The notes: generated by a model from the sequence alone, not told the origin. Counted from the first letter of the stretch, positions 28,449 through 43,249 are shown. The stretch is 64,000 nt of DNA from Candidatus Omnitrophota bacterium (GCA_028280285.1 JANQMA010000044.1:1521-65520), one strand, 5' to 3'. Program-made: numbers and translations.

Positions 28449-28454
28449 ATACAT

Positions 28455-28550: not shown

Positions 28551-28562
28551 TAAAGGATAAAA

Positions 28563-29417
28563 ATGATTCATTTCAAACTAACAATCATGGCGCTTTTATG
28601 GGCGGGAGGCTTTGTCGCCGGCAAGATTATTGTCGATTACGCAGGCCCTTTTACGGTGGCATTTTTCCGTTTTTTTATCGCCACAGGAATTCTGGTTGTG
28701 ATCTTAATGCGCGATAAGCCGGTTTGCACCAAGATCAACCTTAAGTTATTTACTATGGTTGCTGCGGCCGCGTTTACGGGAGAGGTGCTTTATAACTATT
28801 TATTTTTCTCAGGTATCAAATTAACTGATGCCGGGCAGAGCTCCGTTATATTAAGCATTACGCCTATTGCGATGATGATAGCCTCCTATGTTTTATTTGG
28901 GGAAAAACTGAAATTAGCCGGTCTATTGGGAGTTGCCATTTCCATTATTGGGGCATGGGTTGTTATTTCCCAAGGCAATTTAGGATCGGTATTATCGCAA
29001 ATCGGTCTTGGGGAAATATATATCCTTTTGTGTGTTATATGTGTCATTGCATTTGCGTTTTTATCTAAAGAGGTATTGAATCATTTAAGTCCGTTGGTCA
29101 CGCTTGTGTACCTTTCGGCGCTGGGCACTATGTTTCTCATGGGGCCGGCTTTTTTTGAAATGCAGCAAACACCAGTGGAGGTTTCAACACAATTTGTCGT
29201 TAGTTTGTTGTATATGGCCATCGGGCCATCAGTGTTTGCTGTCATGTATTATTACGAAGGCATTGCTCAGATTGGTCCGTCGAAAGCAAGCCAATATATG
29301 AATCTTGTCCCGGTTTTTTCGGTACTATTGGCTTTTCTAATACTTGGCGAAGAACTTTCCGCCTCACTGATTCTGGGAGGTGGGATGGTGACAACTGGAT
29401 TGTACCTTGCAAAATAA
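28563..29417 (+). CDS. EamA/DMT-superfamily transporter
   Basis: Ten TM segments in duplicated EamA architecture. Confidence 0.8.
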   Translation: MIHFKLTIMALLWAGGFVAGKIIVDYAGPFTVAFFRFFIATGILVVILMRDKPVCTKINLKLFTMVAAAAFTGEVLYNYLFFSGIKLTDAGQSSVILSITPIAMMIASYVLFGEKLKLAGLLGVAISIIGAWVVISQGNLGSVLSQIGLGEIYILLCVICVIAFAFLSKEVLNHLSPLVTLVYLSALGTMFLMGPAFFEMQQTPVEVSTQFVVSLLYMAIGPSVFAVMYYYEGIAQIGPSKASQYMNLVPVFSVLLAFLILGEELSASLILGGGMVTTGLYLAK

Positions 29418-29418
29418 G

Positions 29419-29483
29419 TGATCCGTGATCAGTGGTCTGTGATCTGAATAATATCTTTCAGACCACAGGCCACAGATCACAGG
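29419..29483. repeat. Degenerate palindrome built from GTGATC/CACAG units
   Basis: GTGATCCGTGATCAGTGGTCTGTGATCTG ... CAGACCACAGGCCACAGATCACAGG, with several alternative 7-10 bp stems. Confidence 0.6.
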
Positions 29484-29492
29484 AGAAAGGAG

Positions 29493-29732
29493 GTGATAAA
29501 GATGCAGGAAAGATTAGTCTTCGAAGAAGATGAATACCAGTCAATCAAGGCTGATGAAACACTCAAAGCAACAGCTTTGATTTATCTTCAAGATGCTATA
29601 GCTAATGAGCGTTATGAAGAGGCGGCTGAATTGCTTCAGCCGGCTAAACGGTTTGGGGCTTCCAAAGAAGAAATAGCAGCAGTTATTGCTAATACAATTG
29701 TGAAGCGACAAAACAGAATTGCCCGCTTTTAA
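29493..29732 (+). CDS. Small UVR-motif-containing protein (hypothetical)
   Basis: AIANERYEEAAELL resembles the UvrB/UvrC (UVR) motif. Confidence 0.35.
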   Translation: MIKMQERLVFEEDEYQSIKADETLKATALIYLQDAIANERYEEAAELLQPAKRFGASKEEIAAVIANTIVKRQNRIARF

Positions 29733-29844
29733 GGCATATCAATTAACCTGGAATGGAGGAATACAATATGCCTTATTGTGGTAAAATTGGGGACAGTTCC
29801 CCATGGGGAGCTGTCCTTAAACTGTTAAAAGAAAGGATGAGCGC

Positions 29845-30207
29845 ATGCAACATATTAAAGAACCTACGATTGTTAAGGCCTGCGGTAACAAAGAAAAAAT
29901 TATCAAGGAGTATATCGGGCGAGTCAATACTAACATGGATAATATCAGTATTGCTTTTATGGACAGTCCTGGCGGCTGGGAAGAGCCTGGCCAAACACCG
30001 AAGTTTGACGAATACACATTAGTTTTAGAGGGTTCCTTGCGTGTCACGACCAAGAATCAAGAAATAGATGTAGGCGCCGGAGAAGCGGTGATCGCCGAGG
30101 CCGGTGAGTGGGTTAAATACAGTACGCCGAACACCTCAGGGGCTCAATATGTGGCTGTATGCCTTCCGGCTTTTGGGCCGGATATAGTCCACCGTGATGA
30201 ATCTTAA
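29845..30207 (+). CDS. Cupin-domain protein
   Basis: Small beta-barrel-type sequence (TLVLEGSLRVTT...GEAVIAEAGEWVKY). Confidence 0.5.
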   Translation: MQHIKEPTIVKACGNKEKIIKEYIGRVNTNMDNISIAFMDSPGGWEEPGQTPKFDEYTLVLEGSLRVTTKNQEIDVGAGEAVIAEAGEWVKYSTPNTSGAQYVAVCLPAFGPDIVHRDES

Positions 30208-30326
30208 AAAGTAGCAATGTTTATTTTATTATTAGAGAAGCGGTGTTAATATCATATATAAAATATATTAACCAGTGAGGGCTGCTAATTTTATTTTGCT
30301 TGTGAACTTAAGAAAGTAGAGACGAA

Positions 30327-30701
30327 ATGGCCAAAAAAATACTCATAATTGATGATGAGAAAGACATCGCGGATATCACAGCTTTTAAATTTAAACAAAA
30401 AGGATTTGATGTCATCTTGGCGCATGGTGGTAAGGATGGTTTAAAGATGGCCCAGTCGGAGGGGCCGGACCTTATTCTTCTCGATGAAAAGATGCCTGAA
30501 ATGGATGGATTTCAGGTCTGCGCAGCTCTTAAGGCAGATGGTGAGCTTAAGGCCATTCCGGTCATTATGTTTACAGCGAGGACATCAGATGAAATTGATC
30601 AAGATTCATGTCAAGAAGCCGGGTTTGATGATGTTATAACCAAGCTTGCTGATTTTGAAGACCTATTGGCCAAAGTCAATACATTGCTGAACGAGACTTA
30701 G
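30327..30701 (+). CDS. Stand-alone response-regulator receiver protein
   Basis: REC motifs (ILIIDDEKD...LDEKMPEMDG...T...K). Confidence 0.8.
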   Translation: MAKKILIIDDEKDIADITAFKFKQKGFDVILAHGGKDGLKMAQSEGPDLILLDEKMPEMDGFQVCAALKADGELKAIPVIMFTARTSDEIDQDSCQEAGFDDVITKLADFEDLLAKVNTLLNET

Positions 30702-30718
30702 GTTGCTGTGCTTCCTCT

Positions 30719-31429
30719 ATGTTAAGTATAATTATTCCCACCCTTAATGAAGCAAAGTATTTAAAAAAAACTCTACGTGCTTTACAGAAGAACGCAACGC
30801 ATGAATGCGTTAAGGAAATTATTGTCGTTGATGGAGGTTCTTCCGATAAAACCGGCATTATTGCCATGGAAGGCGGAGCCCGTATTATTTATGAAACCGC
30901 AGCGCCCAAGGGCAGAGCCTTTCTCTTAAATAGAGGAGCCGAATTTGCGAGCGGCACAGCTATCCTTTTTTTGGATGCAGATTCGATCGTACCGAAGGGA
31001 TACGATGAGGATATTTTACATTGCCTTGCGTCCGACGGTAATGTTGGCGGTGCATTTGAGTTCACTTTGGTTGGTAAACAATTCGGCTTAAGAGTTGTGG
31101 AGGCGGTTAACCGTCTGCGTTACCGGTTATTTCCCTGGTATTATGGTGACCAGGGGCTTTTTGTTATTAAGGAAGTCTTTGATCAGGCTGGCGGTTTTCC
31201 CCAAGTTAAAATAATGGAGTCGTCTGATTTATCGCGCAGATTATGGAAGTACGGCAGGCTTTGTTTAATTAAAAAACCAATGTTAACATCGGCCAGGCGT
31301 TTTTTGAAATACGGGATTTATCGTGTTCTTGGGCAAGACTTTGAACTATGGCTTTTAAATATTTTAGGACGGGATGTCGAGCAGTATGCTGATGAATATT
31401 GGCGGTTTAATAAGAATAAAAAGCGATAG
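30719..31429 (+). CDS. Family-2 glycosyltransferase (TIGR04283-like)
   Basis: LSIIIPTLNE...VVDGGSSD...LDADS GT-A motifs. Confidence 0.75.
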   Translation: MLSIIIPTLNEAKYLKKTLRALQKNATHECVKEIIVVDGGSSDKTGIIAMEGGARIIYETAAPKGRAFLLNRGAEFASGTAILFLDADSIVPKGYDEDILHCLASDGNVGGAFEFTLVGKQFGLRVVEAVNRLRYRLFPWYYGDQGLFVIKEVFDQAGGFPQVKIMESSDLSRRLWKYGRLCLIKKPMLTSARRFLKYGIYRVLGQDFELWLLNILGRDVEQYADEYWRFNKNKKR

Positions 31430-31470
31430 ACGTTAATTTTTGATGTTTTATTCCCTATTTAATTATTTGT

Positions 31471-31499
31471 TTGACAAAGGGATAAAAATCATTCATACT
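31471..31499 (+). promoter_or_regulatory. Putative sigma70-type promoter of cold-shock gene (TTGACA-N17-CATACT), giving about 150-nt 5'UTR
   Basis: Perfect -35 hexamer and a 4/6 -10 hexamer. The long leader contains a hairpin (CCGCAGGGTAA...TTACCTGCGG) followed by a T-run. Confidence 0.4.
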
Positions 31500-31652
31500 C
31501 TCCTTGAATAAAGGGAGAGCTAAGGCCTCACGGCCGATGTTCTCTTTGAGTGAAGAAGGAAAGGTAAGACTAGTGCCGCAGGGTAAGAGGGTTATTTACC
31601 TGCGGTTTTTTATTTTTCCTTATGTTTGTAAAGCTTCAAAAGGAGACCAATA

Positions 31653-31853
31653 ATGGCAAAAGGTACAGTAAAATGGTTCAGTAATGAAAAAGGCTATGGC
31701 TTTATCACACCAGAATCTGGAGCGGATGTATTTGTACACCATTCAGAAATTCAAGGTGAAGGCTACAAAACTCTTGAAGAGGGTCAGGCTGTTGAGTTTG
31801 AAATTGCTGACGGAGAAAAGGGTCCACAGGCTAAGGACGTTGTAAAAGTATAA
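31653..31853 (+). CDS. csp: Cold-shock protein (CspA family)
   Basis: [16 protein letters not shown]...DVFVHHS matches the RNP1 and RNP2 motifs. Confidence 0.95.
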
Positions 31854-31865
31854 GCCTATATAAAT

Positions 31866-31910
31866 AAAAGGGTTATGTTCGAATGAAAGAATATAACCTT
31901 TTTATTTACA
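31866..31910 (+). terminator. Rho-independent terminator after csp
   Basis: AAAGGGTTATGTTC...GAATATAACCTTT stem followed by TTTATTT. Confidence 0.7.
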
Positions 31911-31918: not shown

Positions 31919-31948
31919 TTGACATATCAAATATTGATATGTTAAACT
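31919..31948 (+). promoter_or_regulatory. marR promoter (TTGACA-N18-TAAACT) with perfect palindromic operator ATATCAA-ATA-TTGATAT in the spacer
   Basis: The palindrome at 31924-31940 lies between the -35 and -10 elements. This is the typical MarR autoregulation layout. Confidence 0.55.
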
Positions 31949-31990: not shown

Positions 31991-32488
31991 ATGATTGCCC
32001 CAACAAACTTTTACTTGAATGCCGTTAAAGGAAGGCCAAGTGCCGAGGTCTTTAACGCCATGCTTCATATTTATTCGCTCCTCCAAATGGAGATGGATAA
32101 ATACTTTGGTCCGTATGATCTGACACCGGTTAAATTCAACACACTCCTTCTCATTAAATATCTAGGGGGAAAAGAGGGTTTGAGTCAGAACGAGATTTCG
32201 CATCATATGATTGTGACACCGTCAAACATCACACGTTTGATTGATCGTCTGATTGCCGATGGCTATGCTGAACGCACTGTATCTATACATGACAGAAGAG
32301 TCAAGATGATTAAGATTACAAAGCCTGGATCACAAATTGTGGATAAAGTATTGCGTGGCTATGGGGATATGATCCAGCAGTCTGTTTATTTATTGGAACG
32401 CTCTGAGGTGGAGCAATTATCAGCGCTTCTGCTGAAATGGTTTCACCGCTTGGATGCGCAAAAAAGGGGAATGAAAAGTGGAGTCTAA
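31991..32488 (+). CDS. MarR-family transcriptional regulator
   Basis: Winged-HTH MarR signature (LSQNEISHHMIVTPSNITRLIDRLIADGYAER...DRRV). Confidence 0.85.
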   Translation: MIAPTNFYLNAVKGRPSAEVFNAMLHIYSLLQMEMDKYFGPYDLTPVKFNTLLLIKYLGGKEGLSQNEISHHMIVTPSNITRLIDRLIADGYAERTVSIHDRRVKMIKITKPGSQIVDKVLRGYGDMIQQSVYLLERSEVEQLSALLLKWFHRLDAQKRGMKSGV

Positions 32489-33269
32489 TATTATTGCGAT
32501 GGTTTTAATAAGTGCAGCGACCGTCATTAGTCTTTTTTTCATTATCTGGATTATACATCTTGTTCTTAATAATGCCGGCGTGGTTGATGTTGGTTGGGGC
32601 CTTGGTTTTACACTCATTGCTCTGATTTATATTTTGCGCGGAGAAGGTTTTAATGCGCGCAACATGCTTATGTTTATCATGGTAGCCCTTTGGGGTACAC
32701 GTATCGTGTTTTTTCTGATTAAACGCATTGTCTTCGAAGGTTACGAGGACAAGCGCTATGCACACTTACGTAATAAATGGGGGAGTAACGCGGCGTTTAA
32801 ATTTTTATGGTTTTTTGAAGCGCAGGCACTTATGCAGATACTTATTTCTATTCCGATATTACTGATCAGTCTAAATCCTAATCCAGCCGTCACGTGGATT
32901 GAGATTTTAGGTTTTGTGATTTGGATGGGCGCTTTATATGGAGAGGCTTTGACCGACGAGCAATTACAAAAGTTTAAAATGAATCCGGCGAATAAAGGAA
33001 AGGTATGTGAAGCAGGTTTGTGGAAATATTCACGTCATCCGAATTATTTTTTCGAAGTCTTGTGCTGGTTCGGATTATTTGTTTTCGGTCTATCCAGTCC
33101 TTATGGATGGTTGGGGGTTATTGCACCGGGGATTATGCTTTATCTTGTGCTATTTGTCACGGGTATTCCTTTAACAGAAGAATTGTCGCTTAAACATCGC
33201 GGCAAAGATTATGAAGAGTATCAGAAAAAAACAAGTTCATTTATTCCATTACCAAGGAGAACGATATGA
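32478..33269 (+). CDS. DUF1295 / isoprenylcysteine-carboxyl-methyltransferase-like membrane protein (steroid 5-alpha-reductase fold)
   Basis: Multi-TM protein with C-terminal YSRHPNYFFE motif. Overlaps marR by 11 nt. Confidence 0.7.
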   Translation: MESNIIAMVLISAATVISLFFIIWIIHLVLNNAGVVDVGWGLGFTLIALIYILRGEGFNARNMLMFIMVALWGTRIVFFLIKRIVFEGYEDKRYAHLRNKWGSNAAFKFLWFFEAQALMQILISIPILLISLNPNPAVTWIEILGFVIWMGALYGEALTDEQLQKFKMNPANKGKVCEAGLWKYSRHPNYFFEVLCWFGLFVFGLSSPYGWLGVIAPGIMLYLVLFVTGIPLTEELSLKHRGKDYEEYQKKTSSFIPLPRRTI

Positions 33270-34306
33270 AATCATTAGCCGCCACAACCCAACCTTTAAT
33301 AGAGAAGGGACTCATTCCCGATCCGCTTGTACGGTTCGGTATTAGAGGACTTCTTAAAGAGAAACTTAAAAAAGAACAACAGTGCCTGGAAGAATCGGGT
33401 AATCAGAGAATACAGCAAATGGTTGATTTTTTAAAGAAGAGTCCGATTGCTGTCAATACACAGGAAGCCAATGAGCAGCATTATGAGGTGCCTACGGAGT
33501 TTTTCCAACTTGTTATGGGTCAACACATGAAATACAGCTGTGGCTATTGGCATGACGGGGTCAAAGACTTTACCCAGTCTGAGCGTGACATGCTTGATAT
33601 CACCATTGAACGGGCCAGTCTTAAGGATGGGCAAGATGTCCTGGAGCTTGGGTGCGGTTGGGGCTCGCTTTCTCTGTATATGGCTGCGCGGTTTCCGGAC
33701 AGTCAGTTTACCGGCATATCCAATTCGCGTACACAAAAGGAGTTTATTGACGGTGAGGCGAAAAAGCGCGGTATTAAAAATCTTCAAATCCGCACCATGG
33801 ATATGAATGATTTTAAGATTGATCAGAAGTTTGATCGTGTTGTCTCGGTGGAGATGTTTGAGCATATGCGCAATTATCAAGAATTGTTTAAACGAATAAG
33901 CGGATGCCTTAAAGAGGGAGGGAAATTATTCGTGCATATTTTTAGTCATAAAAAGTATGCGTATACCTATGAACTCAATGAAGGGTTTGATTGGATGGCA
34001 AGGTACTTTTTTACCGGTGGTATTATGCCGTCGGATGATCTGCTGCTTCATTTTGCCGATCATTTTAATTTAGAAGAGCATTGGCAGGTCAACGGTAAGC
34101 ATTATGAAAAGACATCCAACGGCTGGCTTAAGAATATGGACGCTAATAAAGAAAGAATTATGACTATCTTTAAAGACACTTATGGTTTGGACTATAAAAA
34201 ATGGTGGAATTATTGGCGTATTTTCTTTATGGCCTGCGCTGAACTGTGGGGCTACAAAGACGGCACGGAATGGATTGTTTCACATTATCGGTTTGTTAAG
34301 AAATAG
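33266..34306 (+). CDS. Cyclopropane-fatty-acyl-phospholipid synthase-family SAM methyltransferase (copy 1)
   Basis: LELGCGWGSL SAM motif and a CFA/mycolic-acid cyclopropane synthase-like C-terminus. Confidence 0.85.
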   Translation: MKSLAATTQPLIEKGLIPDPLVRFGIRGLLKEKLKKEQQCLEESGNQRIQQMVDFLKKSPIAVNTQEANEQHYEVPTEFFQLVMGQHMKYSCGYWHDGVKDFTQSERDMLDITIERASLKDGQDVLELGCGWGSLSLYMAARFPDSQFTGISNSRTQKEFIDGEAKKRGIKNLQIRTMDMNDFKIDQKFDRVVSVEMFEHMRNYQELFKRISGCLKEGGKLFVHIFSHKKYAYTYELNEGFDWMARYFFTGGIMPSDDLLLHFADHFNLEEHWQVNGKHYEKTSNGWLKNMDANKERIMTIFKDTYGLDYKKWWNYWRIFFMACAELWGYKDGTEWIVSHYRFVKK

Positions 34307-34311
34307 ATAAA

Positions 34312-34375
34312 AGGTTTTGGGTGTTAGGTGTTGGGTTTTAGATTCTAAAACCTTACACCTTAAACCTAACACCCC
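34312..34375. repeat. G/T-rich vs A/C-rich imperfect hairpin (TTAGG-like units) inside the putative operon
   Basis: GGGTGTTAGGTGTTGGGTTTTAG-att-CTAAAACCTTACACCTTAAACCTAACACCC. The core has a perfect 8-bp stem. Confidence 0.65.
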
Positions 34376-34388
34376 AGGAATTAAAAAT

Positions 34389-35651
34389 ATGGACAGAATC
34401 GCCATAATAGGTACAGGTATTTCGGGCATGGCCGCCGGTTATTTTTTAAAAGATGATTATGACATTACATTCTTTGAGAAAAATGATTACGCCGGTGGGC
34501 ACACCAATACACTCATGGTTGATGAGGACGGCCAGAAGATTCCGATCGATTCTGCCTTTATGGTGTATAACGAAGTGACTTATCCAAAGCTCACGCGGTT
34601 GTTCAGAGAGTTGATGGTTGATACGCGTGACACAGATATGTCATTTAGTGTTCAGCATATGCCGAGTGGACTTGAATACTGTGGCACAGGGTTCAATGGG
34701 TTGTTTGCCCAGCGTCGCAATATTCTAAATCCCCTCCATTATAAAATGCTTTTGGATATCAATCGTTTCAATAAAGAAAGCCTCGAAGTGCTTGAGGAGG
34801 GACGGTTTTGTTATTATTCACTCGGTCAGTATGCGAAAGAAAAAAAATATGGCGAAGATATGCTGTATAAATATTTGATTCCGATGAGCTCGGCTGTCTG
34901 GTCGACACGGCCTGAAGGGATGCTTGATTTTCCCATAGTCACTTTGGTGCGCTTTTTTAAAAATCATGGCTTTTTAGGAATGAATACGCAGCATCAATGG
35001 CGCACGGTTGTCGGTGGCAGCCAAAGCTATCGCGATAAAATTCTCGGCCATTTTGGCAATAAAGTTTATCTGAACACGAATATTGTTGCAGCTAGAAGAG
35101 AAAAAGAAGGGGTTAAACTAAAGGATGCTAAAGATAGTATTTATGATTTTGATAAAGTAATTTTAGCCTCTCATGCTGACCAGACGCTTAAAATATTAGT
35201 TGACGCTCGAGAAGAAGAGCGGGAAGTGTTGTCCTTGTTTCCCTATGGGGCTAACAGGGCAACACTTCACACGGATGATTCGGTTATGCCCAAATGCAAA
35301 CGGGCCTGGTCATCGTGGAATTACCGGATGATTGAAAAAGATAATCAGGTGAAAACCTCAACCATTTACTATATGAATAAATTACAAAAGGTTTCTGAAA
35401 GACAAGACTACTTTATTTCGATTAATGAGTTGGGCGAAATCGATCCCGCTAAAATTATTTGGGAAAAAACCTATTATCATCCACTTTACACCATGGATTC
35501 ACTCGATGGACAAAAGCGCTTGGAAGCGCTTAATGATAACGGACAGGTATATTTTGCCGGGGCGTATTTTAAATACGGCTTTCACGAAGATGGTTTAGCC
35601 TCCGGCATTAATGTGGCATCAAAAATTTTAGGTCGGGAGATATGGCGATGA
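34389..35651 (+). CDS. FAD/NAD-binding amine-oxidase-like oxidoreductase (COG2907; UfaD-like fatty-acid desaturase candidate)
   Basis: Rossmann GxGxxG (IAIIGTGISGMAAG). ATG start at 34389 preferred over the TTG at 34317. Confidence 0.75.
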   Translation: MDRIAIIGTGISGMAAGYFLKDDYDITFFEKNDYAGGHTNTLMVDEDGQKIPIDSAFMVYNEVTYPKLTRLFRELMVDTRDTDMSFSVQHMPSGLEYCGTGFNGLFAQRRNILNPLHYKMLLDINRFNKESLEVLEEGRFCYYSLGQYAKEKKYGEDMLYKYLIPMSSAVWSTRPEGMLDFPIVTLVRFFKNHGFLGMNTQHQWRTVVGGSQSYRDKILGHFGNKVYLNTNIVAARREKEGVKLKDAKDSIYDFDKVILASHADQTLKILVDAREEEREVLSLFPYGANRATLHTDDSVMPKCKRAWSSWNYRMIEKDNQVKTSTIYYMNKLQKVSERQDYFISINELGEIDPAKIIWEKTYYHPLYTMDSLDGQKRLEALNDNGQVYFAGAYFKYGFHEDGLASGINVASKILGREIWR

Positions 35652-36430
35652 ATTCCTGTATTTATGAAGGAAAAGTTATGCATTCTCGGGTTAAGCCCAA
35701 ATATTATAAATTCATCCATGATGTCTTTATGTTTTATCTTGATCTAGATGAGATTGATGCCATTACGCAACGTAATTGGTTTATTTCTCGTAATAAACCT
35801 AATGTATTCAGCTTTTATGACAAAGACCATATGGATTTTGGGAATAAAAATATTAAAGAAAATGTTATTGCTTATGCGAGGAAAAAAGGGTTTAATGGGC
35901 CTATTAAACGGGTGATGCTTTTGACTAACCTTAGGGTTTTTGGGTATGTCTTTAATCCTGTTTCTTTTTATTATTGTTTCGATGAAAACGATAATCCCCT
36001 TTGTTCGATCGCCGAAGTAGGCAATACTTTTGGTGAAATCAAAAACTTCTTTTTAGGACCAGAAACTCTTCATAAAAATCAATTTCTCAGCGAGAAGAAA
36101 AAATATTTTTATGTTTCGCCTTTTGTTGACCTTGATGTGCCGATGGACTTTTGCCTTAAAGTTCCAGGGGAGAAGATAAATATCAAAATTGATGATTTAA
36201 AGAAAAATAAAAAATTTCTCTATACGACATTAACGGGCGAAAGAAGAAAGCTGACAACGTTTGGCGCGTTTAAGTTTGGCGCAATATATCCATTTATAAC
36301 ACTTAAAGTCATCGGCCTGATTCATTATCATGCCGCTGTTCTGCATTTTATTAAAAAAATACCACATCATAAAAAGGCAGCTAATCCGCATTTTCAAAGG
36401 GAGGTGCAAAGTGAATATATTACGAAATAA
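35642..36430 (+). CDS. DUF1365-family protein (UfaO-like candidate)
   Basis: N-terminus CIYEGKVMHSRVKPKYYKF is typical of DUF1365. Confidence 0.75.
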   Translation: MAMNSCIYEGKVMHSRVKPKYYKFIHDVFMFYLDLDEIDAITQRNWFISRNKPNVFSFYDKDHMDFGNKNIKENVIAYARKKGFNGPIKRVMLLTNLRVFGYVFNPVSFYYCFDENDNPLCSIAEVGNTFGEIKNFFLGPETLHKNQFLSEKKKYFYVSPFVDLDVPMDFCLKVPGEKINIKIDDLKKNKKFLYTTLTGERRKLTTFGAFKFGAIYPFITLKVIGLIHYHAAVLHFIKKIPHHKKAANPHFQREVQSEYITK

Positions 36431-37709
36431 TATCCATAAATTGTACCGGGTGATCATGGATCAAGTCTTTACCCATATGAAACTCGGGCGATTGACCGTA
36501 TCTATGCCGGATGGAACCAAGCGGCATTATGGCAACGGTGAAGGTCCGGCCAAGGCGCATATTAATATTCGTCGCGGGGACTTTTTCCGTAAATGTGTTC
36601 ATTACGGAGCGGTTGGATTTGGCGAAAGTTATGTCGACGGTGATTGGGATACGCCGGATTTGACCAAAGTGATCGCATGGATGATTTTAAACCATGAAAA
36701 TCTGCCGGCGGAACGCGGACGAAATAAAAAGTTTACCGTCATTGATGCGTTAAGCTTTCTTAATGTCATTCGCTCGAAATTCCGGCTTAATACCCTCAAT
36801 GGAAGCCGTAAGAATATTTCAGATCATTATGATTTAGGGAATGACTTTTTTAAGCTGTTCCTTGATGAAACGATGACCTATTCCTCGGCGATTTTTACTA
36901 AACCTAATCAGAGCTTGAAGGATGCTCAAGTCGAGAAATACGACCGGCTGTGCCGTCAATTAAAGCTTAGTCATCAAGACCATGTCCTTGAGATCGGAAG
37001 CGGGTGGGGTGGATTTTCGTGCTATGCGGCTAAAAAGTATGGATGCCGGATAACCACAACCACTATCTCGCAAGAGCAATATAAACACGTCAAAAATAAG
37101 ATCAAAAAAGAAGGCTTAGAAAATCAAATTAAGATCAAATTATCCGATTATAGAAGGCTCGCCGGCACCTATGACAAAATTGTCTCAATTGAAATGATCG
37201 AGGCGGTTGGGCATGAGTTTCTTCCGACTTATATCAAAAAGTGCCAGGAGCTTCTCAAGCCAAACGGCCTTTTAGGACTTCAAATGATTTTGTTTCCCGA
37301 TCAGCGTTATGATATTGCCCGCAAAAATGTCGACTGGATTCAGAAACATATTTTTCCCGGAAGTCTTTTGCCGTCAATGAATGCTATTCAAAAGGTGATG
37401 AGGCAGTTAGGAACCATGAATCTACTGGATTACAAGGATATCACGTCCCATTATGCCAAAACGCTTAAGATATGGCGTGAGGCATTTAATCAAAATAAAC
37501 AAAAGATTAAGTCGATGAAACAAACGGAGGAGTTCATTCGTAAATGGAATTATTATTGGTCTTATTGTGAAGCGGCTTTCCGTATGCGCCACATCAATGT
37601 CGCGCAAGCGGTCTTTACAAGGTCCAATAACCACATGCTTCACGATGATCTTGAAGTTGAGCTTAATGGAAAAGATAAGCAATTTATTGAGGAGCTAAGT
37701 TATGTATAA
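36409..37709 (+). CDS. Cyclopropane-fatty-acyl-phospholipid synthase-family SAM methyltransferase (copy 2)
   Basis: [13 protein letters not shown]-domain and [13 protein letters not shown] motif. GTG start at 36409 preceded by the strong SD AAGGGAGGTG. Confidence 0.8.
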
Positions 37710-38208
37710 AAAAACCTTAATGATCGGTCTTTTCATTGTTATCACTGTTTTTAGTTTTACACACAAGGTGGATGCCATGACAAAAACACAGAAATTTTTT
37801 GATGATCTTAGTGTTGATACCATGCATTTAGTCGATGAATATTATACCGAGGATATTCAGTTTCTCGATCCGATGGTCGAAATTACCGGTCGGGATAATT
37901 TAAAAGATTATTACGCCGGTGTTTATGCCGCTGCTGATGAGGTCTCGTTTGAGTATTTAAGTGAAATACAATATCAGCAGGAATTAGTTCTTGTCTGGCG
38001 CATGACGTTCAATAATAAAAAGCTTAATAAGGGAAAAGATATTATTGTTGACGGGACTTCCCATATTAAATTGAATGACCAGGGACAAGCCTACTATCAC
38101 CGGGATTATTTTGATATGGGGGCCATGATTTATAAGTATGTCCCGGTTATGAAGCATATGGTCAAATACGTCAATAGACGCCTCGCCCAAAGTCACGCGA
38201 ATCATTAG
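37702..38208 (+). CDS. Secreted NTF2/SnoaL-like fold protein
   Basis: Signal peptide plus about 140-aa domain with SnoaL-like composition. Confidence 0.45.
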   Translation: MYKKTLMIGLFIVITVFSFTHKVDAMTKTQKFFDDLSVDTMHLVDEYYTEDIQFLDPMVEITGRDNLKDYYAGVYAAADEVSFEYLSEIQYQQELVLVWRMTFNNKKLNKGKDIIVDGTSHIKLNDQGQAYYHRDYFDMGAMIYKYVPVMKHMVKYVNRRLAQSHANH

Positions 38209-38255
38209 ATTAACGATTTTTTCCACCAGTGGTATGTCGGCTCGAGTTAGCCGTT

Positions 38256-38328
38256 TGCATTGGAATGCTGAGTGACTGAAATCGTCTTCCAAACAGTAAA
38301 CGATTTCCGGAACGAAGCAACCAATGCA
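38256..38328. ncRNA. Candidate structured RNA/DNA element A (nested hairpins, CATTGG/CCAATG outer stem)
   Basis: Outer stem TGCATTGG/CCAATGCA encloses a perfect inner stem GAAATCGT/ACGATTTC. Confidence 0.35.
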
Positions 38329-38349
38329 GAAGCCTAACGAGAGCTTTGT

Positions 38350-38461
38350 CATTGGCAGGTAGTATTCTTCGCTCAAACAGTCCTCGCTCTATATCTTTTT
38401 CTGAGCTTTTAAAAGAAAGATATATGCTGCGGAACTCGCTCGGGAACACTACCTGCCAATG
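38350..38461. ncRNA. Candidate structured RNA/DNA element B (112-nt hairpin with perfect 14-bp outer stem)
   Basis: Outer stem CATTGGCAGGTAGT...ACTACCTGCCAATG. Inner stem ATATCTTT/AAAGATAT around the 10-bp palindrome CTTTTAAAAG. Confidence 0.4.
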
Positions 38462-38601
38462 TACACGCTCAATCCCAAGCAACCGCTTCCAAATATGTTG
38501 CACATTTGTAACATCCATGTCGCAAAAATGTAACATTCACTAGGTATATTAAAATCAGATAGGAAGGTGTTTAAAGTGCGTCTATAGAGGAGGAGCAACC
38601 T

Positions 38602-41037
38602 ATGAAAAGAGTCGATACACATGTCCATACTGAGTATTCCAATGAGCCGTCTGAATGGTTTTTGCGTCAAACAGGTATGAATGAAAGCTATGTTCCGGTT
38701 GAGGAGGCCTATCGTCTGGCCAAATCCAACGGGATGGACTATGTTGTTATTACAGACCATAACACGATTGACGGGGCCTTGGCTCTCAATAAGCTCCATC
38801 CGGAAGATACCTTTATTGGGGTGGAAGTCACCACCGAATTTCCGGAAAATGGCTGTAAAATGCACATCCTTGTCTTTGATATTACCGAAGAACAATTTGC
38901 GCACATCCAGAAAATACGAGGCAATATTTACACTTTTCGTGACTACATAATTGCTGAAAATATTGCCTATTCTGTCGCCCATGCCACTTTTGCGGTTAAT
39001 TGCAGCTTAAGTATGGAAGTGCTTGAAAAATTGATTCTTATGTTTGATGTCTTTGAGGGGATTAATGGGGCGCGTAATCCTTATTTTAATGAAAGCTGGA
39101 TGAAGGCGCTCACACAGCTGACACCGGCCGATATTGCCCGGCTTTACGCCAAATATAAAATTGCGCCTATGAGCCCGGATCCGTGGATCAAAGGGTTTAC
39201 CGGGGGGACGGATGATCATGCCGCGCTTTATATAGGAGAGACCTGGACAGGATGTGAGGCTAATTCAAAGGAAGAGTTTATCCAAAAACTGAAAGATAAA
39301 AAGACATTTGCCTCGGGCCGGCACAATGACTTTAAAGGCATGGCCTATACATTTTCAAAAATCCTTCACCAGGCTTCAGAAAATGGGCTCGCAAAAAAGA
39401 AAGATGAGAACATTTTCAAAATTGTAAGCAACTTAATTTTTAACGGCAGTCGTCCGAGTATGAAACAATCTTACGGTATTCACCGGATGAAATTCAGCCG
39501 TAAAAAGAAAAACAGAATACTGGCCAAATTCATCGATCAGCTCGATACGGATTTGCAAGACATAAAAGATCTGCATGTCGAGGATAAGATCGATTGCATT
39601 TATGATAATTTATCAAACTTGTGCGACGATTTGTTAAAACATTTTGTGACCAAGTCTCAAAAAGACATTGCGGCCGGTGATCTATTCAAATTTGTAAACA
39701 GTATTTCTTCACTGCTGCCTATTGCCTATTTGACGGCGCCGTTTGCCACAACAAGCAAACTGCTTAATCAAGACAGGGAGCTTCTCGAGGAATTCCGCAG
39801 TCAATATATAGAAGACGAGCCGAATGAAGGCAAACGCGTTTATTGGTTTACCGATACATTGATTGATCTCAATGGTGTTTCGGTAACAATCAATAATATG
39901 TATCAATGTGCCAAAAAATATAATGTCGGGCTTAAAATCGTAACCTCTAATCCAAACATAACCGTTGAGGATGACTTAAAAGATGAGATTATTAATTTAC
40001 CGACAATCACATCCATCAAGCCGGGGTTTTACGAAACATACACACTGCATATCCCATCAATCCTAAAATCGATTGAGAAAATTTGTGAATTAAATCCGGA
40101 TGAAATCATTATATCTACGCCGGGAACGGTTGGTCTCATCGGGCTTTTAGCGGCCAAGATATTAGGGATTAAATGCACAGGCATTTATCATTCCGATTTC
40201 GGCGCGCAGGCAAACTATTTGCTCGGAAGTGGATTTACAGCGACGACTGTCGAGAAATATACACATTGGTTTTATAAACAATTAGACAAAATCCGTGTGC
40301 CGACGCATGAGTATATTGACATACTTTCCGCCCAGGGATTTGAGGGAAAAGAAATGAAAAAGTTCAAACGCGGTATTAATACCGATCTATTCGCGTACAA
40401 CACATCTTTTGAAAATGAGGTTCGCAAAAAATACGGCATCAAAGACGGTTTTACCATGATTTATGCCGGACGTGTGAGTAAAGACAAGAGTGTTGATTTT
40501 CTTTCTAAAATCTACAAAGGTGTTTGCCGCAATTATAAAAAAGCAAACCTTATTGTCGCCGGAAACGGCCCGGAGTTAGAGTGGCTTAAAGAAGATCTGA
40601 AAGATTATCCACGCGTGGTTTTTACCGGGAGTATTGAGCGAACGGAATTGACCAAGCTTTATTCTTTTGCCGATCTTTTGGTTTTTCCAAGTACGACAGA
40701 TACATTTGGTATGGTTGTCTTAGAAGCGCAAAGTTGCGGACTGCCGGCGCTTGTTTCGGATCAAGGCGGACCGCAGGAAATTATAAAGAAGCGTGCGACA
40801 GGCCAAGTTATTCCTGCCAATAATTTGTATGAATGGATTGGGCAGATTCTTGAGTTTATTTATCTGTGCGATAATCATCCGGATAAATACATGTTAATCA
40901 GAAAAGAGACACGTAATTGGATTAAAGATAATTATTCCTGGGAAAAGGCATTAGAAGATTTACTTAATGTTTCTATTTTACCGGAAGGGCCGTCGCGTCC
41001 GTCACGTATTTCACTCATCGATGATCCAGTTATTTAA
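38602..41037 (+). CDS. PHP-domain (polymerase/histidinol-phosphatase metal hydrolase) fused to family-4 (GT-B) glycosyltransferase
   Basis: N-terminal HVHTEYSNEPSE...VVITDHN PHP motifs. C-terminal GT4 motifs (GRVSKDKSVD, FVFPSTTDTFGMVVLEAQSCGLPALVSDQGGPQEII). SD GAGGAGGA. Confidence 0.75.
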   Translation: MKRVDTHVHTEYSNEPSEWFLRQTGMNESYVPVEEAYRLAKSNGMDYVVITDHNTIDGALALNKLHPEDTFIGVEVTTEFPENGCKMHILVFDITEEQFAHIQKIRGNIYTFRDYIIAENIAYSVAHATFAVNCSLSMEVLEKLILMFDVFEGINGARNPYFNESWMKALTQLTPADIARLYAKYKIAPMSPDPWIKGFTGGTDDHAALYIGETWTGCEANSKEEFIQKLKDKKTFASGRHNDFKGMAYTFSKILHQASENGLAKKKDENIFKIVSNLIFNGSRPSMKQSYGIHRMKFSRKKKNRILAKFIDQLDTDLQDIKDLHVEDKIDCIYDNLSNLCDDLLKHFVTKSQKDIAAGDLFKFVNSISSLLPIAYLTAPFATTSKLLNQDRELLEEFRSQYIEDEPNEGKRVYWFTDTLIDLNGVSVTINNMYQCAKKYNVGLKIVTSNPNITVEDDLKDEIINLPTITSIKPGFYETYTLHIPSILKSIEKICELNPDEIIISTPGTVGLIGLLAAKILGIKCTGIYHSDFGAQANYLLGSGFTATTVEKYTHWFYKQLDKIRVPTHEYIDILSAQGFEGKEMKKFKRGINTDLFAYNTSFENEVRKKYGIKDGFTMIYAGRVSKDKSVDFLSKIYKGVCRNYKKANLIVAGNGPELEWLKEDLKDYPRVVFTGSIERTELTKLYSFADLLVFPSTTDTFGMVVLEAQSCGLPALVSDQGGPQEIIKKRATGQVIPANNLYEWIGQILEFIYLCDNHPDKYMLIRKETRNWIKDNYSWEKALEDLLNVSILPEGPSRPSRISLIDDPVI

Positions 41038-41042
41038 TTACA

Positions 41043-41120
41043 TGTTGTTTGTTGTTCGTTGATGGTTGTTGGCGGATTTGATTCTAACAACAAACAACTA
41101 ACAACCAACAACTAAAATAA
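41043..41120. repeat. G/T-rich vs A/C-rich palindromic element between GT4 and radical-SAM genes
   Basis: GTTGTTTGTTGTTCGTTGATGGTTGTTGG...CTAACAACAAACAACTAACAACCAACAAC, with flanking CATGTT/AACATG. Confidence 0.65.
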
Positions 41121-41122
41121 AC

Positions 41123-42403
41123 ATGTCACTTCAAGCAGAACTTTCCAAAGTTTTCCTGTTTAGCCAGAATAAAATTCCCGGCCAGTTGATTATTCAAATC
41201 ACCGACCATTGCAATGCCACCTGTCCGCAGTGCGGTATGCGCAAGACCGCTGAGTTTCGCCGTTCTAAACTTGATATAGATCAAATCAAACGTTATATCG
41301 ACAAGGCCGTTGAGAATGGTGTGGAGGCAATGTCGTTTACCGGCGGTGAGCCGATGTTGTTTTTAAATGACTTGGTTGAGATGATCAACTATGCTGGGGC
41401 CGCCGGGATTAAATATATTCGCACCGGCACGAATGGATATCTGTTACGCAAAGGTAAAAGCAAGGATGAATTTGATACACGCATTAAACGGGTCGTTGAA
41501 AAGATTGTGTCAACGCCTGTGCGTAATTTTTGGATTAGCATTGATTCGGCGTGTTTTGATACCCATGAACGGATGCGCGGGTTTGACGGACTAATTGAGG
41601 GTATCGCAATGGCAGTGCCGCTTTTTCATGAAGCCGGATTATACCCTTCAGCTAATTTAGGGATTAACCGTAATCTTGGCGGCGCCGTTACAGAATCTTT
41701 ATGGAGCGAAGATCCGGATGATGAAGAGCATCTTGATAAATTTTATATCGAATTTAAAGATGCGTTTGATCAGTTTTATCGCACGGTGATCGATATGGGA
41801 TTTTCTATTGTGAATATGTGTTATCCGATGAGTGTGCCGGAAGGCGGGACAGATCTTCAATCTGTGTATACTGCAACGTCGATTGATAAGATTGTCAATT
41901 TCTCAAGAGGGGAGCGGCTTAAGCTTTTTACGGCGCTTATTGATACTGTGCCCAAGTACCGTTCGCAAATTCGTATTTTTACCCCTATGAGTTCACTGTA
42001 TACGCTTAAAAAACAATATGAAGATGATGCTTACGAGGCAGGCTATCCTTGCCGCGGCGGCATTGACTTTTTCTTTGTGGACTCCCAGGATGGGCAGACC
42101 TATCCATGCGGCTTTCGCGGCAATGAGAGCTTTGGCGAGTACGACAAGCTTGATATGGAGACTATTGACCGCAATGCCTTTTGCACGAAATGCGATTGGG
42201 AGTGCTTCAGAGATCCATCGGTGCTTTTCGGCCCTTTTATTGAAGGAGTCCGCCAGCCCCTGCAGCTTTTGCGGAAATTCAGCAATAGGCGTGAGTTTCT
42301 TGATCTGTGGCGCAAGGATCTTGCCTACTATGAGTCCTGCGACCTTTTTGATGGCCGTAAGCCAATCAGTTACAATGCGTTAAGAAAATTTAACCTTTCT
42401 TAA
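41123..42403 (+). CDS. Radical SAM enzyme with C-terminal Cys-rich (SPASM/twitch-like) region
   Basis: CNATCPQC is the CX3CX2C motif. Additional Cys clusters (PCRGG...PCGF, CTKCDWEC) may bind an auxiliary cluster. Confidence 0.75.
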   Translation: MSLQAELSKVFLFSQNKIPGQLIIQITDHCNATCPQCGMRKTAEFRRSKLDIDQIKRYIDKAVENGVEAMSFTGGEPMLFLNDLVEMINYAGAAGIKYIRTGTNGYLLRKGKSKDEFDTRIKRVVEKIVSTPVRNFWISIDSACFDTHERMRGFDGLIEGIAMAVPLFHEAGLYPSANLGINRNLGGAVTESLWSEDPDDEEHLDKFYIEFKDAFDQFYRTVIDMGFSIVNMCYPMSVPEGGTDLQSVYTATSIDKIVNFSRGERLKLFTALIDTVPKYRSQIRIFTPMSSLYTLKKQYEDDAYEAGYPCRGGIDFFFVDSQDGQTYPCGFRGNESFGEYDKLDMETIDRNAFCTKCDWECFRDPSVLFGPFIEGVRQPLQLLRKFSNRREFLDLWRKDLAYYESCDLFDGRKPISYNALRKFNLS

Positions 42404-43247: not shown

Positions 43248-43249
43248 AC

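Follow-up and report, generated by a model that had tools for sequence, protein, structure and literature searches.

Furan fatty acids (FuFA) are scavengers of radicals and singlet oxygen. Their synthesis in Rhodobacter and Rhodopseudomonas depends on UfaM (RSP2144/RPA2569), a CFA-synthase homologue, UfaD (RSP1091/RPA2571), an NAD/FAD-binding desaturase, UfaO (RSP1090/RPA2570), a DUF1365 protein, and FufM (RPA0924), a second methylase that C-methylates the furan ring (PMC7380195). All steps of the pathway act on phospholipids and those of UfaD and UfaO need O2, while FufM, reported to be 26 % identical to UfaM, converts 9M5-FuFA to 9D5-FuFA on its own, both in vivo and in vitro (PMC7380195). 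These roles had been described accurately in the initial annotation of the locus considered here. In Halomonas the genes are consecutive, and the cluster-linked methylase made 11-methyloctadec-12-enoate, not cyclopropane, when expressed in E. coli. The cluster-linked CFA-like gene of R. sphaeroides, RSP1089, is dispensable for FuFA synthesis, with UfaM encoded elsewhere; synteny alone is thus no proof that a cluster-linked methylase such as mt2 (below) is UfaM.

The window analysed is a stretch of 64,000 nt from a contig of an Omnitrophota MAG. Positions 31991–38208 contain seven intact ORFs on the + strand, in the order MarR, DUF1295, methyltransferase mt1, FAD oxidase, DUF1365, methyltransferase mt2 and SnoaL/NTF2 protein; they lie at the coordinates given initially, and profile matches place each of them in the family named there. 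The tight coupling that had been claimed is evident at most junctions. marR and DUF1295 overlap by 11 nt, DUF1295 and mt1 by ATGA (translational coupling), the oxidase and DUF1365 by 10 nt, DUF1365 and mt2 by 20 nt, and mt2 and the SnoaL gene by 8 nt. Comparison with locus L035 indicates purifying selection on the operon genes (dN 0.12–0.32, dS saturated). The seven genes probably form one operon under MarR repression, whose products build methylated furan fatty acids on acyl chains already present in phospholipids. Based on family membership, synteny and links in the literature, we infer that its genes are orthologous to those for UfaM, UfaD, UfaO and FufM. Since other bacteria are known to have this pathway, the operon would add a member with a different regulator to a known type of system.

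The upstream boundary of the operon is cspA with its own stem-loop (31861–31908). Just 3′ of this stem-loop starts a sigma-70-type promoter (31919–31948, + strand), composed of TTGACA, an 18 nt spacer and TAAACT with an extended −10 TG; it matches the consensus at 10 of 12 positions and is located 43 nt 5′ of the marR ATG. A candidate MarR operator (31919–31942) combines the 12 bp palindrome-like TTGACATATCAA over the −35 box with a perfect 9-3-9 inverted repeat, ACATATCAA-ATA-TTGATATGT, which fills the promoter spacer at 31922–31942. The 12 bp palindrome over the −35 box (TTGACATRTCAA) is kept in all six MarR-led Omnitrophota loci, where the motif TTGA(C/T)AT(A/G)TCAA is invariant. The regulator itself (31991–32488, + strand; 165 aa; PF12802, 2.8e-10; PF01047, 8e-8) is a winged-helix protein of the MarR family that scores under every NCBIfam equivalog cut-off, and its gene is the first of the cluster in six of seven Omnitrophota-type loci. 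A profile search found no ECF sigma or ChrR gene adjoining the operon. The conserved palindrome and this negative result both favour the earlier suggestion of MarR rather than sigma-E/ChrR control, and we infer that MarR controls the operon by binding the candidate palindrome. Transcription would start at the TTGACA/TAAACT promoter, and a MarR dimer occupying the palindrome over the −35 box and the spacer would keep the operon, marR included, switched off until released by an effector. As this MarR has no cysteine (nor does its L035 orthologue), release is probably triggered by a lipophilic ligand and not by thiol oxidation.

The second gene encodes a polytopic DUF1295 membrane protein of 263 aa (32478–33269, + strand; PF06966, 1e-71; Steroid_dh, 3.7e-8). 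The protein belongs to the steroid-reductase/ICMT superfamily, and its C-terminal RHPNY...EE region matches the M. acetivorans ICMT 4a2n (E 1.8e-4). In every locus examined, the DUF1295 gene lies directly 5′ of the mt1 orthologue. Since FufM suffices by itself, in vitro as well as in vivo, the published pathway leaves no place for DUF1295; the protein may be an uncharacterised partner of mt1 in the last branch. This conserved partner is the most interesting open point of the system.

mt1 (33266–34306, + strand; 346 aa; CMAS PF02353, 7e-45) is a CMAS-family SAM methyltransferase. Its best PDB match is CNMT 6gkv, over the full length at 35 % identity (249 bits, vs 107 bits for Cfa), and its AF2 model (pLDDT 89.8) aligns by Foldseek with a TM of 0.95 to CNMT and 0.65 to Cfa. 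The E-x-x-E-H motif is conserved as VEMFEHM. mt1 is therefore a member of the coclaurine-N-methyltransferase-like branch of the CMAS family, which has more than 8000 bacterial members at 45–65 % identity. FufM is reported to be 38 % identical to AT4G33110/LIME1, annotated as ‘coclaurine N-methyltransferase, putative’, a link that places it indirectly in the same branch. mt1 is proposed, by analogy, to be a FufM-type furan fatty-acid methylase. Identity between mt1 and mt2 is 19 % in a multiple alignment and 21–26 % in local tblastn comparisons of each with the orthologues of the other, which agrees with the 26 % reported between FufM and UfaM.

The internal hairpin noted initially between the first methylase and the desaturase was confirmed as an imperfect 62 nt structure (34313–34374, + strand) within the 82 nt mt1–oxidase spacer. 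Its RNA MFE is −31.9 kcal/mol, against −18.5 ± 3.1 for shuffled sequences (z = −4.3; 0 of 200 shuffles as stable). It occurs once in the window and has no U-tract 3′ of it. The hairpin is missing from the closest relative, L035, with a spacer of 27 nt, from L001, L036, L038 and L039, in which mt1 and the oxidase gene overlap or abut, and from L040, with a gap of 3 nt. By this comparison it is specific to this genome and may be a recent lineage-specific insertion, outside the conserved design, that could stabilize or punctuate the transcript.

The oxidase gene (34389–35651, + strand) most likely starts at ATG 34389 (MDRIAIIGTG...), giving a protein of 420 aa, the length of the orthologues. A mechanically called ORF starting at TTG 34317 crosses the hairpin and was dropped. 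The protein has an FAD amine-oxidase fold (Amino_oxidase PF01593, 2.4e-14; NAD_binding_8, 3e-10) with an N-terminal dinucleotide-binding motif, IIGTGISGMAAG. Its best PDB match, LkcE, reaches 115 bits, compared with only about 25 bits for true monoamine oxidases. The gene immediately precedes DUF1365, in the way that ufaD precedes ufaO, and its product is proposed to be a UfaD-like desaturase of the methyl-branched acyl chain. The UfaO-like DUF1365 protein (35642–36430, + strand; 260–262 aa; PF07103, 2e-65) is likewise proposed to be the O2-dependent enzyme that forms the furan ring.

mt2 (36411–37709, + strand; CMAS, 3e-86) is a two-domain CFA-synthase-like SAM methyltransferase with a DUF7884 N-domain. 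Its most likely start is GTG 36411, behind GGGAGGTG, which yields 432 aa and a 20 nt overlap with DUF1365 identical to that in locus L001. The protein is 34–38 % identical to E. coli and L. acidophilus Cfa, and scores 273 and 275 bits in the Cfa equivalog models with cut-offs of 400 and 600. Positions 139, 236, 240 and 266 are Ser, Glu, Ala and Gln in mt2 vs Cys, Gly, His and His in Cfa, so that the bicarbonate ligands Cys139 and His266 are replaced; Glu239 and Tyr317 of the Cfa site are retained. The mt2-type signature (Ser/Ala at 139) is shared by each of the six cluster-linked orthologues in the comparison, which span three phyla, and is not found in E. coli or L. acidophilus Cfa. Judged by its sub-cut-off scores and the two replaced ligand positions, mt2 is not a bona fide Cfa, and it is proposed to be a UfaM-type acyl-chain C-methylase. 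Firm grouping with bona fide Cfa, which had been named as a result that would speak against a furan pathway, was thus found for neither methylase. The last gene (37702–38208, + strand) encodes a SnoaL_2/DUF2358 (NTF2-like) protein of 168 aa (PF12680, 1e-10; PF10184, 5e-7) with an N-terminal Sec-type signal, an orthologue in L035 at 61 % identity and no informative match in the PDB. Once exported, it may serve as an accessory lipid-handling or lipid-binding protein.

The chemistry of the steps can be taken from the characterized alpha-proteobacterial pathway, with mt2 proposed as the UfaM-like and mt1 as the FufM-like enzyme. mt2 would use SAM to methylate a cis-monounsaturated chain, for example vaccenate, giving the methyl-branched trans-alkene 11Me-12t-18:1. 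From this the UfaD-type oxidase, with O2 accepting the electrons, would produce the conjugated diene 11Me-10t,12t-18:2. The UfaO-type DUF1365 beta-barrel protein would then insert one O atom from O2 and close the furan ring to give 9M5-FuFA, and mt1 would add the second ring methyl, giving 9D5-FuFA. The products in Omnitrophota could differ in chain length or methylation, depending on the acyl substrates. The oxidase–DUF1365–CMAS order, together with a UfaM-like mt2 and a FufM-like mt1, supports the original reading of a complete, possibly dimethylated, furan fatty-acid pathway.

The core DUF1295–mt1–oxidase–DUF1365–mt2 is kept in seven Omnitrophota-type and two Bacteroidota loci, and is present in a different order on an Acinetobacter plasmid, where an NTF2-family gene is also found in the neighbourhood. 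At least 12 further contigs, recognized by their identical lengths, were common to the match lists of DUF1365 and mt1. The cluster is widespread (Omnitrophota, Bacteroidota, Proteobacteria) and therefore not unusual. The DUF1295–mt1 pair of Shinella comes directly after the singlet-oxygen regulators ECF sigma/ChrR, and DUF1365 and the oxidase gene lie close by. The singlet-oxygen/SAK1 regulon of Chlamydomonas co-induces CFA1, a ‘coclaurine N-methyltransferase’ (CFA2/CPLD27), DUF1365 and DUF1295. COX1/COX2 are located close to the cluster on one related contig.

Other readings of the locus centre on the two methylases and DUF1295. Under the older annotation, mt2 would be an ordinary cyclopropane fatty-acid synthase and the cluster would yield cyclopropane- or cyclopropene-type lipids. 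In the PDB and NCBIfam alike, mt2 does match Cfa enzymes best, and the retained Glu239 and Tyr317 fit this; however, mt2 is far under both equivalog cut-offs, the changes Cys139 to Ser/Ala, His266 to Gln, Gly236 to Glu and His240 to Ala are present in all cluster-linked orthologues, the cluster-linked homologues of R. palustris and Halomonas are UfaM by experiment, and cyclopropanation does not involve UfaD or UfaO, which makes this reading highly improbable. There is an even slimmer chance that mt1 is an N-methyltransferase acting on an amine, whether a small molecule or a lipid head group, and tied to the ufa genes only by co-regulation. Its closest structures are plant benzylisoquinoline N-methyltransferases and the catalytic E-x-x-E-H motif is conserved, yet in both Omnitrophota and Bacteroidota the gene is flanked by DUF1295 and the UfaD-like gene, the sole characterized bacterial member of the branch, FufM, is a furan-ring C-methylase, and more than 8000 bacterial members suit a conserved housekeeping or stress function on lipids better than alkaloid chemistry. 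A modified membrane fatty acid other than 9M5/9D5 (further reduced, carboxyl-methylated, differently methylated, or a furan acid on other chain lengths), in whose synthesis DUF1295 would act catalytically beside mt1 as a membrane reductase or methyltransferase, is unlikely but retains some weight. In its favour, the coupling of DUF1295 to mt1 holds for every locus, spanning at least three phyla, and in Chlamydomonas DUF1295 is induced together with the other genes. The protein also has the cofactor-binding region RHPNY...EE found in ICMT and steroid/sterol reductases, and the published pathway gives it no role. Against a catalytic role, to our knowledge no activity has been assigned to any DUF1295 protein; FufM alone turns 9M5- into 9D5-FuFA, and a non-catalytic role as membrane tether or chaperone for mt1 fits equally well.

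The oxygen requirement of the diene and furan steps raises a further possibility, namely that the operon is carried by an anaerobe and is silent, or makes only the methyl-branched alkene. The scanned parts of the window contain no oxidase or oxygen-defence gene, which counts in favour of this. However, none of the seven genes is disrupted, all are under purifying selection, many Omnitrophota have kept the entire core, the COX1/COX2 genes mentioned above lie near the cluster on a related contig, and a repressor-controlled operon suits conditional use upon oxygen exposure; disuse is thus very unlikely. The synthesis of methylated furan fatty acids remains the preferred reading.

Among known systems, R. 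palustris CGA009 (ufaD-ufaO-ufaM, RPA2571-2570-2569) and Halomonas have the same oxidase–DUF1365–CMAS order as the window. R. palustris also has a second, very divergent CMAS methylase (FufM/UfaM 26 %, here mt1/mt2 19 %), and its fufM overlaps the upstream RPA0923 by ATGA, just as mt1 overlaps DUF1295. However, fufM is at a separate locus in R. palustris, whereas in the window all genes form one operon with the FufM-like branch first, and the MarR regulator is unlike the setting of the R. palustris FuFA genes. In the R. sphaeroides sigma-E/ChrR regulon operon RSP1091-1087, which serves to make singlet-oxygen-scavenging 9M5-FuFA on phospholipids, a CFA-like gene comes after adjoining genes of the UfaD and UfaO families, as here. 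In contrast to the window, R. sphaeroides has ufaM (RSP2144) beside a photolyase away from the cluster, lacks FufM, and uses an ECF sigma/anti-sigma pair in place of a MarR repressor.

The two Bacteroidota MAGs (L022, L024), Acinetobacter piscicola plasmid pYH12207-1 (L027) and Shinella plasmid p1 (L026) hold all five families at 33–63 % protein identity to the window, with the same active-site signatures and with accessory genes drawn from one pool (NTF2, chalcone-isomerase-like, lipocalin, SOUL and fatty-acid desaturase). They differ in regulation and arrangement: the Bacteroidota loci have no obvious regulator, the Acinetobacter locus has LysR and sensor kinase genes nearby and a permuted gene order, and the Shinella genes are dispersed, with a sigma-E/ChrR regulator. 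E. coli and Lactobacillus Cfa (6bqc, 5z9o) share with mt2 the two-domain architecture and the SAM-binding GxGxG motif, but form cyclopropane, whereas the expected product of mt2 is a methyl-branched alkene. The plant coclaurine, pavine and tetrahydroprotoberberine N-methyltransferases (6gkv, 5kn4, 6p3m) and LIME1/AT4G33110 resemble mt1 in full-length fold, including the N-terminal helical domain; these plant enzymes N-methylate alkaloids, whereas the bacterial mt1, from its context and the analogy with FufM, is expected to C-methylate a lipid furan ring.

Between 31991 and 38208, seven ORFs are present on the + strand, and competing long ORFs are absent. A MarR gene (Pfam PF12802/PF01047) is followed by genes for a DUF1295 protein (PF06966, 1e-71; Steroid_dh also matches, less strongly), a first CMAS-family methyltransferase (mt1; Pfam, 7e-45), an FAD oxidase (34389-35651; Amino_oxidase/NAD_binding_8), a DUF1365 protein (35642-36430; PF07103, 2e-65), a second methyltransferase (mt2; 36411-37709; CMAS 3e-86, 289 bits, plus a Cfa-type N-terminal DUF7884 domain) and, last in the operon, a SnoaL_2/DUF2358 protein of NTF2-like type with a typical N-terminal Sec signal. 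Adjacent genes overlap by 4-20 nt everywhere except between mt1 and the oxidase gene, where a spacer of 82 nt contains a hairpin. The tightly coupled seven-gene set proposed in the initial annotation is thus borne out by the ORF coordinates and Pfam families. Mechanically called ORF starts are too long for two of the genes. For the oxidase, ATG 34389 (MDRIAIIGTGISG...) is the preferred start, giving 420 aa like its orthologues; a start at TTG 34317 would cross the hairpin. Likewise, mt2 should start at GTG 36411, after GGGAGGTG, giving 432 aa and a 20 nt overlap with the DUF1365 gene, as in the Omnitrophota-type locus L001. Compared with L035, the closest related locus, dN is 0.12-0.32 with saturated dS for all seven genes, which indicates purifying selection.

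The furan fatty-acid pathway has been described as acting at all steps on phospholipid-bound chains (PMC7380195, Lemke et al. 2020). The CFA-synthase homologue UfaM (RSP2144/RPA2569) adds a methyl group to vaccenate; the NAD/FAD-binding protein UfaD (RSP1091/RPA2571) forms the 10,12-diene in a step that needs O2; UfaO (RSP1090/RPA2570) closes the furan with O2-derived oxygen; and FufM (RPA0924) converts 9M5- to 9D5-FuFA by methylation (PMC7380195). Judged from its sequence, the operon described here probably encodes this pathway in complete form, with the dimethyl type probable and with MarR control. Furan-type methylated fatty acids are its likely product; a dimethylated end product in particular is about as likely as not. 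On a related contig, COX1/COX2 genes adjoin the cluster.

The oxidase has both NAD_binding_8 and Amino_oxidase domains, and so carries the Rossmann motif with an amine-oxidase/phytoene-desaturase-like fold that is characteristic of UfaD. Its N-terminus has weak matches to CrtD, PPOX and HpnE, and LkcE matches at 115 bits. A 19-mer from the start of RPA2571 retrieved seven loci, all unrelated. The DUF1365 gene is located directly 3' of the oxidase gene with a 10-nt overlap, and its product matches PF07103 over its full length (221 bits; residues 7-246 of 262, profile positions 1-233 of 235). UfaO has been described as a DUF1365 protein (PMC7380195). Adjacency of the two genes is found in all Omnitrophota loci and in L024, from a Bacteroidota MAG; in L022, also from a Bacteroidota MAG, a small ORF is located between them. 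No solved-structure relative of the UfaO-like protein was found by sequence. In its AF2 model (pLDDT 93, pTM 0.91), the chain forms a closed beta-barrel and ends at the C-terminus in two hydrophobic helices.

The two methylases are only 19% identical to each other in a multiple alignment. mt1 is a full-length relative of the plant coclaurine, pavine and tetrahydroprotoberberine N-methyltransferases, scoring 249 bits (35% identity) against coclaurine N-methyltransferase (CNMT, 6gkv) versus 107 bits against Cfa. Its AF2 model (pLDDT 89.8) has a TM of 0.95 to CNMT and 0.65 to Cfa, and the E-x-x-E-H motif is retained. mt1 therefore belongs to the coclaurine-N-methyltransferase-like (LIME1-like) CMAS branch, in which published work indirectly places FufM as well: FufM is reported to be 38% identical to Arabidopsis AT4G33110/LIME1 (PMC10940516), itself annotated as 'coclaurine N-methyltransferase, putative' (PMC3388832). 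With AT4G33110 as intermediary, mt1 is therefore assigned as a predicted FufM-type enzyme, and mt2 as a predicted UfaM-type enzyme. The mt1 start codon is overlapped by the upstream gene (ATGA, 33266-33269), and the same arrangement is seen in Shinella; in R. palustris, RPA0923 overlaps fufM (RPA0924) by ATGA, as read off the primer sequences in the supplement of PMC7380195. Scanning of genome contigs with a 21-mer from the RPA0924 start gave 20 chance matches, mostly in Chloroflexia and none in Rhodopseudomonas, at which tblastn revealed no encoded homologues. A 25-mer across the RPA0924 stop codon had no match in metagenome contigs. With the Shinella FufM-like protein as query, a homologue search returned Rhizobiaceae/Phyllobacteriaceae-type matches only, none of which had the termini expected of RPA0924 (MSGLASL.../...RLKPA).

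Like UfaM, mt2 is a SAM methyltransferase of the CMAS family and carries a Cfa-like domain at its N-terminus. Its alignment with E. coli Cfa covers residues 34 to 375, and it is 34% identical to that protein and 38% identical to L. acidophilus Cfa. Its gene is located immediately 3' of the DUF1365 gene (20-nt overlap), as ufaM follows ufaO in R. palustris and Halomonas. Six cluster-linked orthologues from Omnitrophota, Bacteroidota and Acinetobacter (the window, L001, L022, L024, L027 and L035) were compared with the E. coli and L. acidophilus Cfa enzymes. At E. coli positions Cys139/Gly236/Glu239/His240/His266/Ile268/Tyr317, mt2 and the five other orthologues have S(A)/E/E/A/Q/I/Y versus C/G/E/H/H/I/Y in Cfa. 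Cys139, Glu239, His266 and Tyr317 (E. coli numbering) form the bicarbonate site of Cfa, with Cys139 and His266 as the bicarbonate ligands. In mt2 these four positions carry Ser, Glu, Gln and Tyr, and the changes are kept in all six orthologues. Loss of Cys139 and His266 would fit an enzyme that releases a methyl-alkene and does not close a cyclopropane. The motif SIEM(I/L)EAVG, together with Gln at His266 and Ser/Ala at Cys139, sets all examined cluster-linked methylases apart from both Cfa enzymes and, if UfaM shares the signature, could serve as an annotation rule. This simple division of cluster-linked methylases from true cyclopropane synthases (S/A-E-A-Q versus C-G-H-H) is a feature that the published pathway does not explain.

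The initial annotation had named two groupings that would speak against its furan reading, of the methylases with bona fide Cfa and of the FAD protein with true amine oxidases; neither was found. Both methylases score below the NCBIfam Cfa equivalog cut-offs (mt1, 163.7 versus 400; mt2, 273.3 versus 400 for PRK11705 and 274.7 versus 600 for the Brucella type), and monoamine oxidases A and B match the oxidase over its first ~100 residues only, at 22-26 bits. The reading as a furan fatty-acid operon is supported by the gene families, the gene order in R. palustris and Halomonas, and the methylase assignments.

The internal hairpin previously noticed between mt1 and the oxidase gene (34312-34375) is real. 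At 34313-34374 it folds with -31.9 kcal/mol and is more stable than shuffled sequences (z = -4.3). A role as an intrinsic terminator is rejected, since a U-tract is absent and the structure is directly followed by the ribosome-binding site and start codon (ATG) of the oxidase gene. A role as a conserved regulatory feature is likewise rejected, since the hairpin is missing from all related loci: L035 has a 27-nt spacer without it, mt1 and the oxidase gene overlap or abut in L001, L036, L038 and L039, and a gap of 3 nt separates them in L040. No second copy of the kind expected for a REP/MITE-like repeat was found within the window, where the hairpin is unique, and it was unmatched in Rfam at gathering thresholds. 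The hairpin is a lineage-specific insertion, which at most may tune how stable the mRNA is or how strongly the two operon halves are expressed relative to each other.

Upstream of the operon are cspA (31653-31853; CSD 5e-30), a stem-loop (31861-31908) and the best promoter match of the region (31919-31948), TTGACA-18-TAAACT with a TG extension. The promoter spacer is occupied by a perfect 9-3-9 inverted repeat, ACATATCAA-ATA-TTGATATGT, and the -35 hexamer sits inside the near-palindrome TTGACATATCAA. When the regions upstream of marR in six Omnitrophota loci were aligned, TTGA(C/T)AT(A/G)TCAA was the only invariant block (6/6). Both a winged-helix domain (Pfam) and an inverted repeat across its own promoter are therefore present for this MarR protein, and a palindrome over its own promoter is the classical layout for an autoregulated MarR repressor, which would presumably bind there. 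Two further modes of control were considered. Sensing of thiols or peroxides in the manner of OhrR is ruled out by the lack of the reactive N-terminal cysteine: neither the window MarR nor its closest orthologue (L035) contains any cysteine, and the match to the OhrR model reaches 26.7 bits, where the cut-off is 200. A mechanism that responds to a ligand is more probable than a thiol switch. Control by sigma-E/ChrR, which the initial annotation had set aside in favour of MarR, finds no gene beside the operon: among the genes called in 27540-31853 and 38602-44785 there is no ECF sigma factor or ChrR, the flanking genes on the two sides being those for a phosphoesterase, EamA, cupin, response regulator, GT2, CspA, PHP-GT4, radical SAM, DUF4126 and Ppx. 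The MarR gene and the conserved palindrome agree with the earlier view. By comparison, a sigma/ChrR pair is present at the Shinella cluster.

The DUF1295 gene is located immediately upstream of mt1 in all loci, usually with an overlap. Its C-terminal RHPNY...EE segment can be aligned with Steroid_dh and with the part of M. acetivorans ICMT that binds the cofactor; thus, DUF1295 could be a membrane methyltransferase or reductase. The published pathway does without DUF1295 (PMC7380195). In Chlamydomonas, CFA1, CFA2/CPLD27 ('coclaurine N-methyltransferase'), a DUF1365 gene and a DUF1295 gene are induced together as part of the singlet-oxygen regulon that depends on SAK1 (PMC4067076), which is independent evidence that these four families (CFA, CNMT-like, DUF1365 and DUF1295) work together. 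We entertain, as a rather doubtful extension, that DUF1295 is an obligatory, hitherto overlooked catalytic part (a membrane-embedded reductase or methyltransferase of the steroid-reductase/ICMT superfamily) of a dimethyl-furan branch, paired with the FufM-type enzyme, and that the Omnitrophota operon, as a lipid defence dependent on oxygen, is induced via the cysteine-free MarR sensing a lipid-derived ligand. If DUF1295 were catalytic, the product or mechanism of the five-gene core would differ from that of the published four-enzyme pathway. The constancy of DUF1295 as a partner of the FufM-type methylase is a further feature that the published pathway leaves unexplained.

Named relatives among the DUF1365 matches are 'Candidatus Omnitrophica/Omnitrophota' MAGs. 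The closest locus, L035, has ~70% DNA identity and a collinear GT2 gene, cspA, marR and six downstream genes. MarR is first in six of the seven Omnitrophota-type loci (the window, L001, L035, L036, L038 and L040), with a PAS-GerE regulator in its place in L039. The five-gene core (DUF1295-mt1-oxidase-DUF1365-mt2) is also found in Bacteroidota MAGs, with mt1 identity of 61-63%. On the Acinetobacter piscicola plasmid pYH12207-1 the core is reordered and located beside photolyase, lipocalin, acyl-CoA desaturase, chalcone-isomerase-like and NTF2 genes; on Shinella plasmid p1, genes for an ECF sigma factor and the ChrR anti-sigma-E directly precede DUF1295-mt1, and the FAD oxidase and DUF1365 genes are close. 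At least 12 further contigs, recognised by their equal lengths, are common to the DUF1365 and mt1 match lists. Given its presence in several phyla and on these contigs, the cluster is common and ancient, and not peculiar to the window genome. The NTF2-like gene is drawn from a variable accessory pool, to which chalcone-isomerase-like, lipocalin, SOUL and fatty-acid desaturase genes also belong.

Two of these loci carry additional features. In the MarR-less L039 (GCA_015233335.1, JADFXX010000011.1, 1617-11691), DUF1475 accompanies the PAS-GerE regulator upstream, while the genes downstream encode an NAD-dependent epimerase (DUF1731), a chalcone-isomerase-like protein, a lipocalin and the UV-damage endonuclease UvdE; these accessory genes resemble the photo-oxidative stress sets beside Proteobacteria clusters. 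The Shinella sp. H4-D48 plasmid p1 locus (L026, 2217-11346) encodes catalase C, the FAD oxidase, ECF sigma, ChrR, DUF1295, the mt1-like methylase, a MASE7-like membrane protein, DUF2177, DUF2147 and DUF1365, and no UfaM-like gene is present in this interval. DUF2177 is also within the Chlamydomonas singlet-oxygen regulon (PMC4067076).

Several features of the surrounding window were also observed. A 60-nt non-coding stretch upstream of cspA (31552-31611) is 90% identical to L035, with flanks at ~70%, and is probably a conserved cspA leader. The Rfam cspA thermoregulator gives a sub-threshold match over 31579-31806 (19.8 bits versus a gathering threshold of 78, E 0.0057). Relative to L035, the chalcone-isomerase-like gene after the SnoaL gene is missing, with ~4.3 kb in its place (38210-42489); no Chalcone_3 remnant was found 3' of the SnoaL gene. 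This segment contains two antisense ORFs, neither of them matched in Pfam (38210-38536 and 38449-38982), nested inverted repeats (38240-38470), a gene that fuses a PHP domain to a GT4 glycosyltransferase (38602-41037) and a radical SAM gene (41123-42403), after which synteny with L035 picks up at Pmp3 (42490-42654) and DUF4126. Downstream of DUF4126, adjoining Ppx/GppA phosphatase and polyphosphate kinase genes (43250-46816) look like ordinary polyphosphate metabolism. An unusually large chemotaxis cluster (41-24376) contains three MCPs, two CheB/CheR/CheW sets, CheA, CheD and at least five CheX/CheC-type phosphatases, one of which is fused to a receiver domain.

Current understanding is not overturned by this finding, which amounts to a solid, unsurprising annotation. 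It extends the reach of a lipid-protection pathway with defined biochemistry to the uncultivated phylum Omnitrophota, about whose membrane chemistry and relations to oxygen next to nothing is known, and for which methylated furan fatty acids become a predicted and testable lipid biomarker. Additionally, a compact single-operon mono- plus dimethyl-furan pathway may be of use in heterologous production. Among known systems, the ufaD-ufaO-ufaM order of R. palustris is the order in the window, and the three genes are consecutive in Halomonas as well. The cluster-linked methylase of Halomonas yields 11-methyloctadec-12-enoate in E. coli, whereas true cfa yields cyclopropanes. A caveat to such synteny comes from R. 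sphaeroides, in which the syntenic CFA-like gene product, RSP1089, is dispensable and is not UfaM, which is encoded elsewhere. The pathway itself is thus already known; what is new here is the phylum, the regulator and the presence of all genes in one operon.
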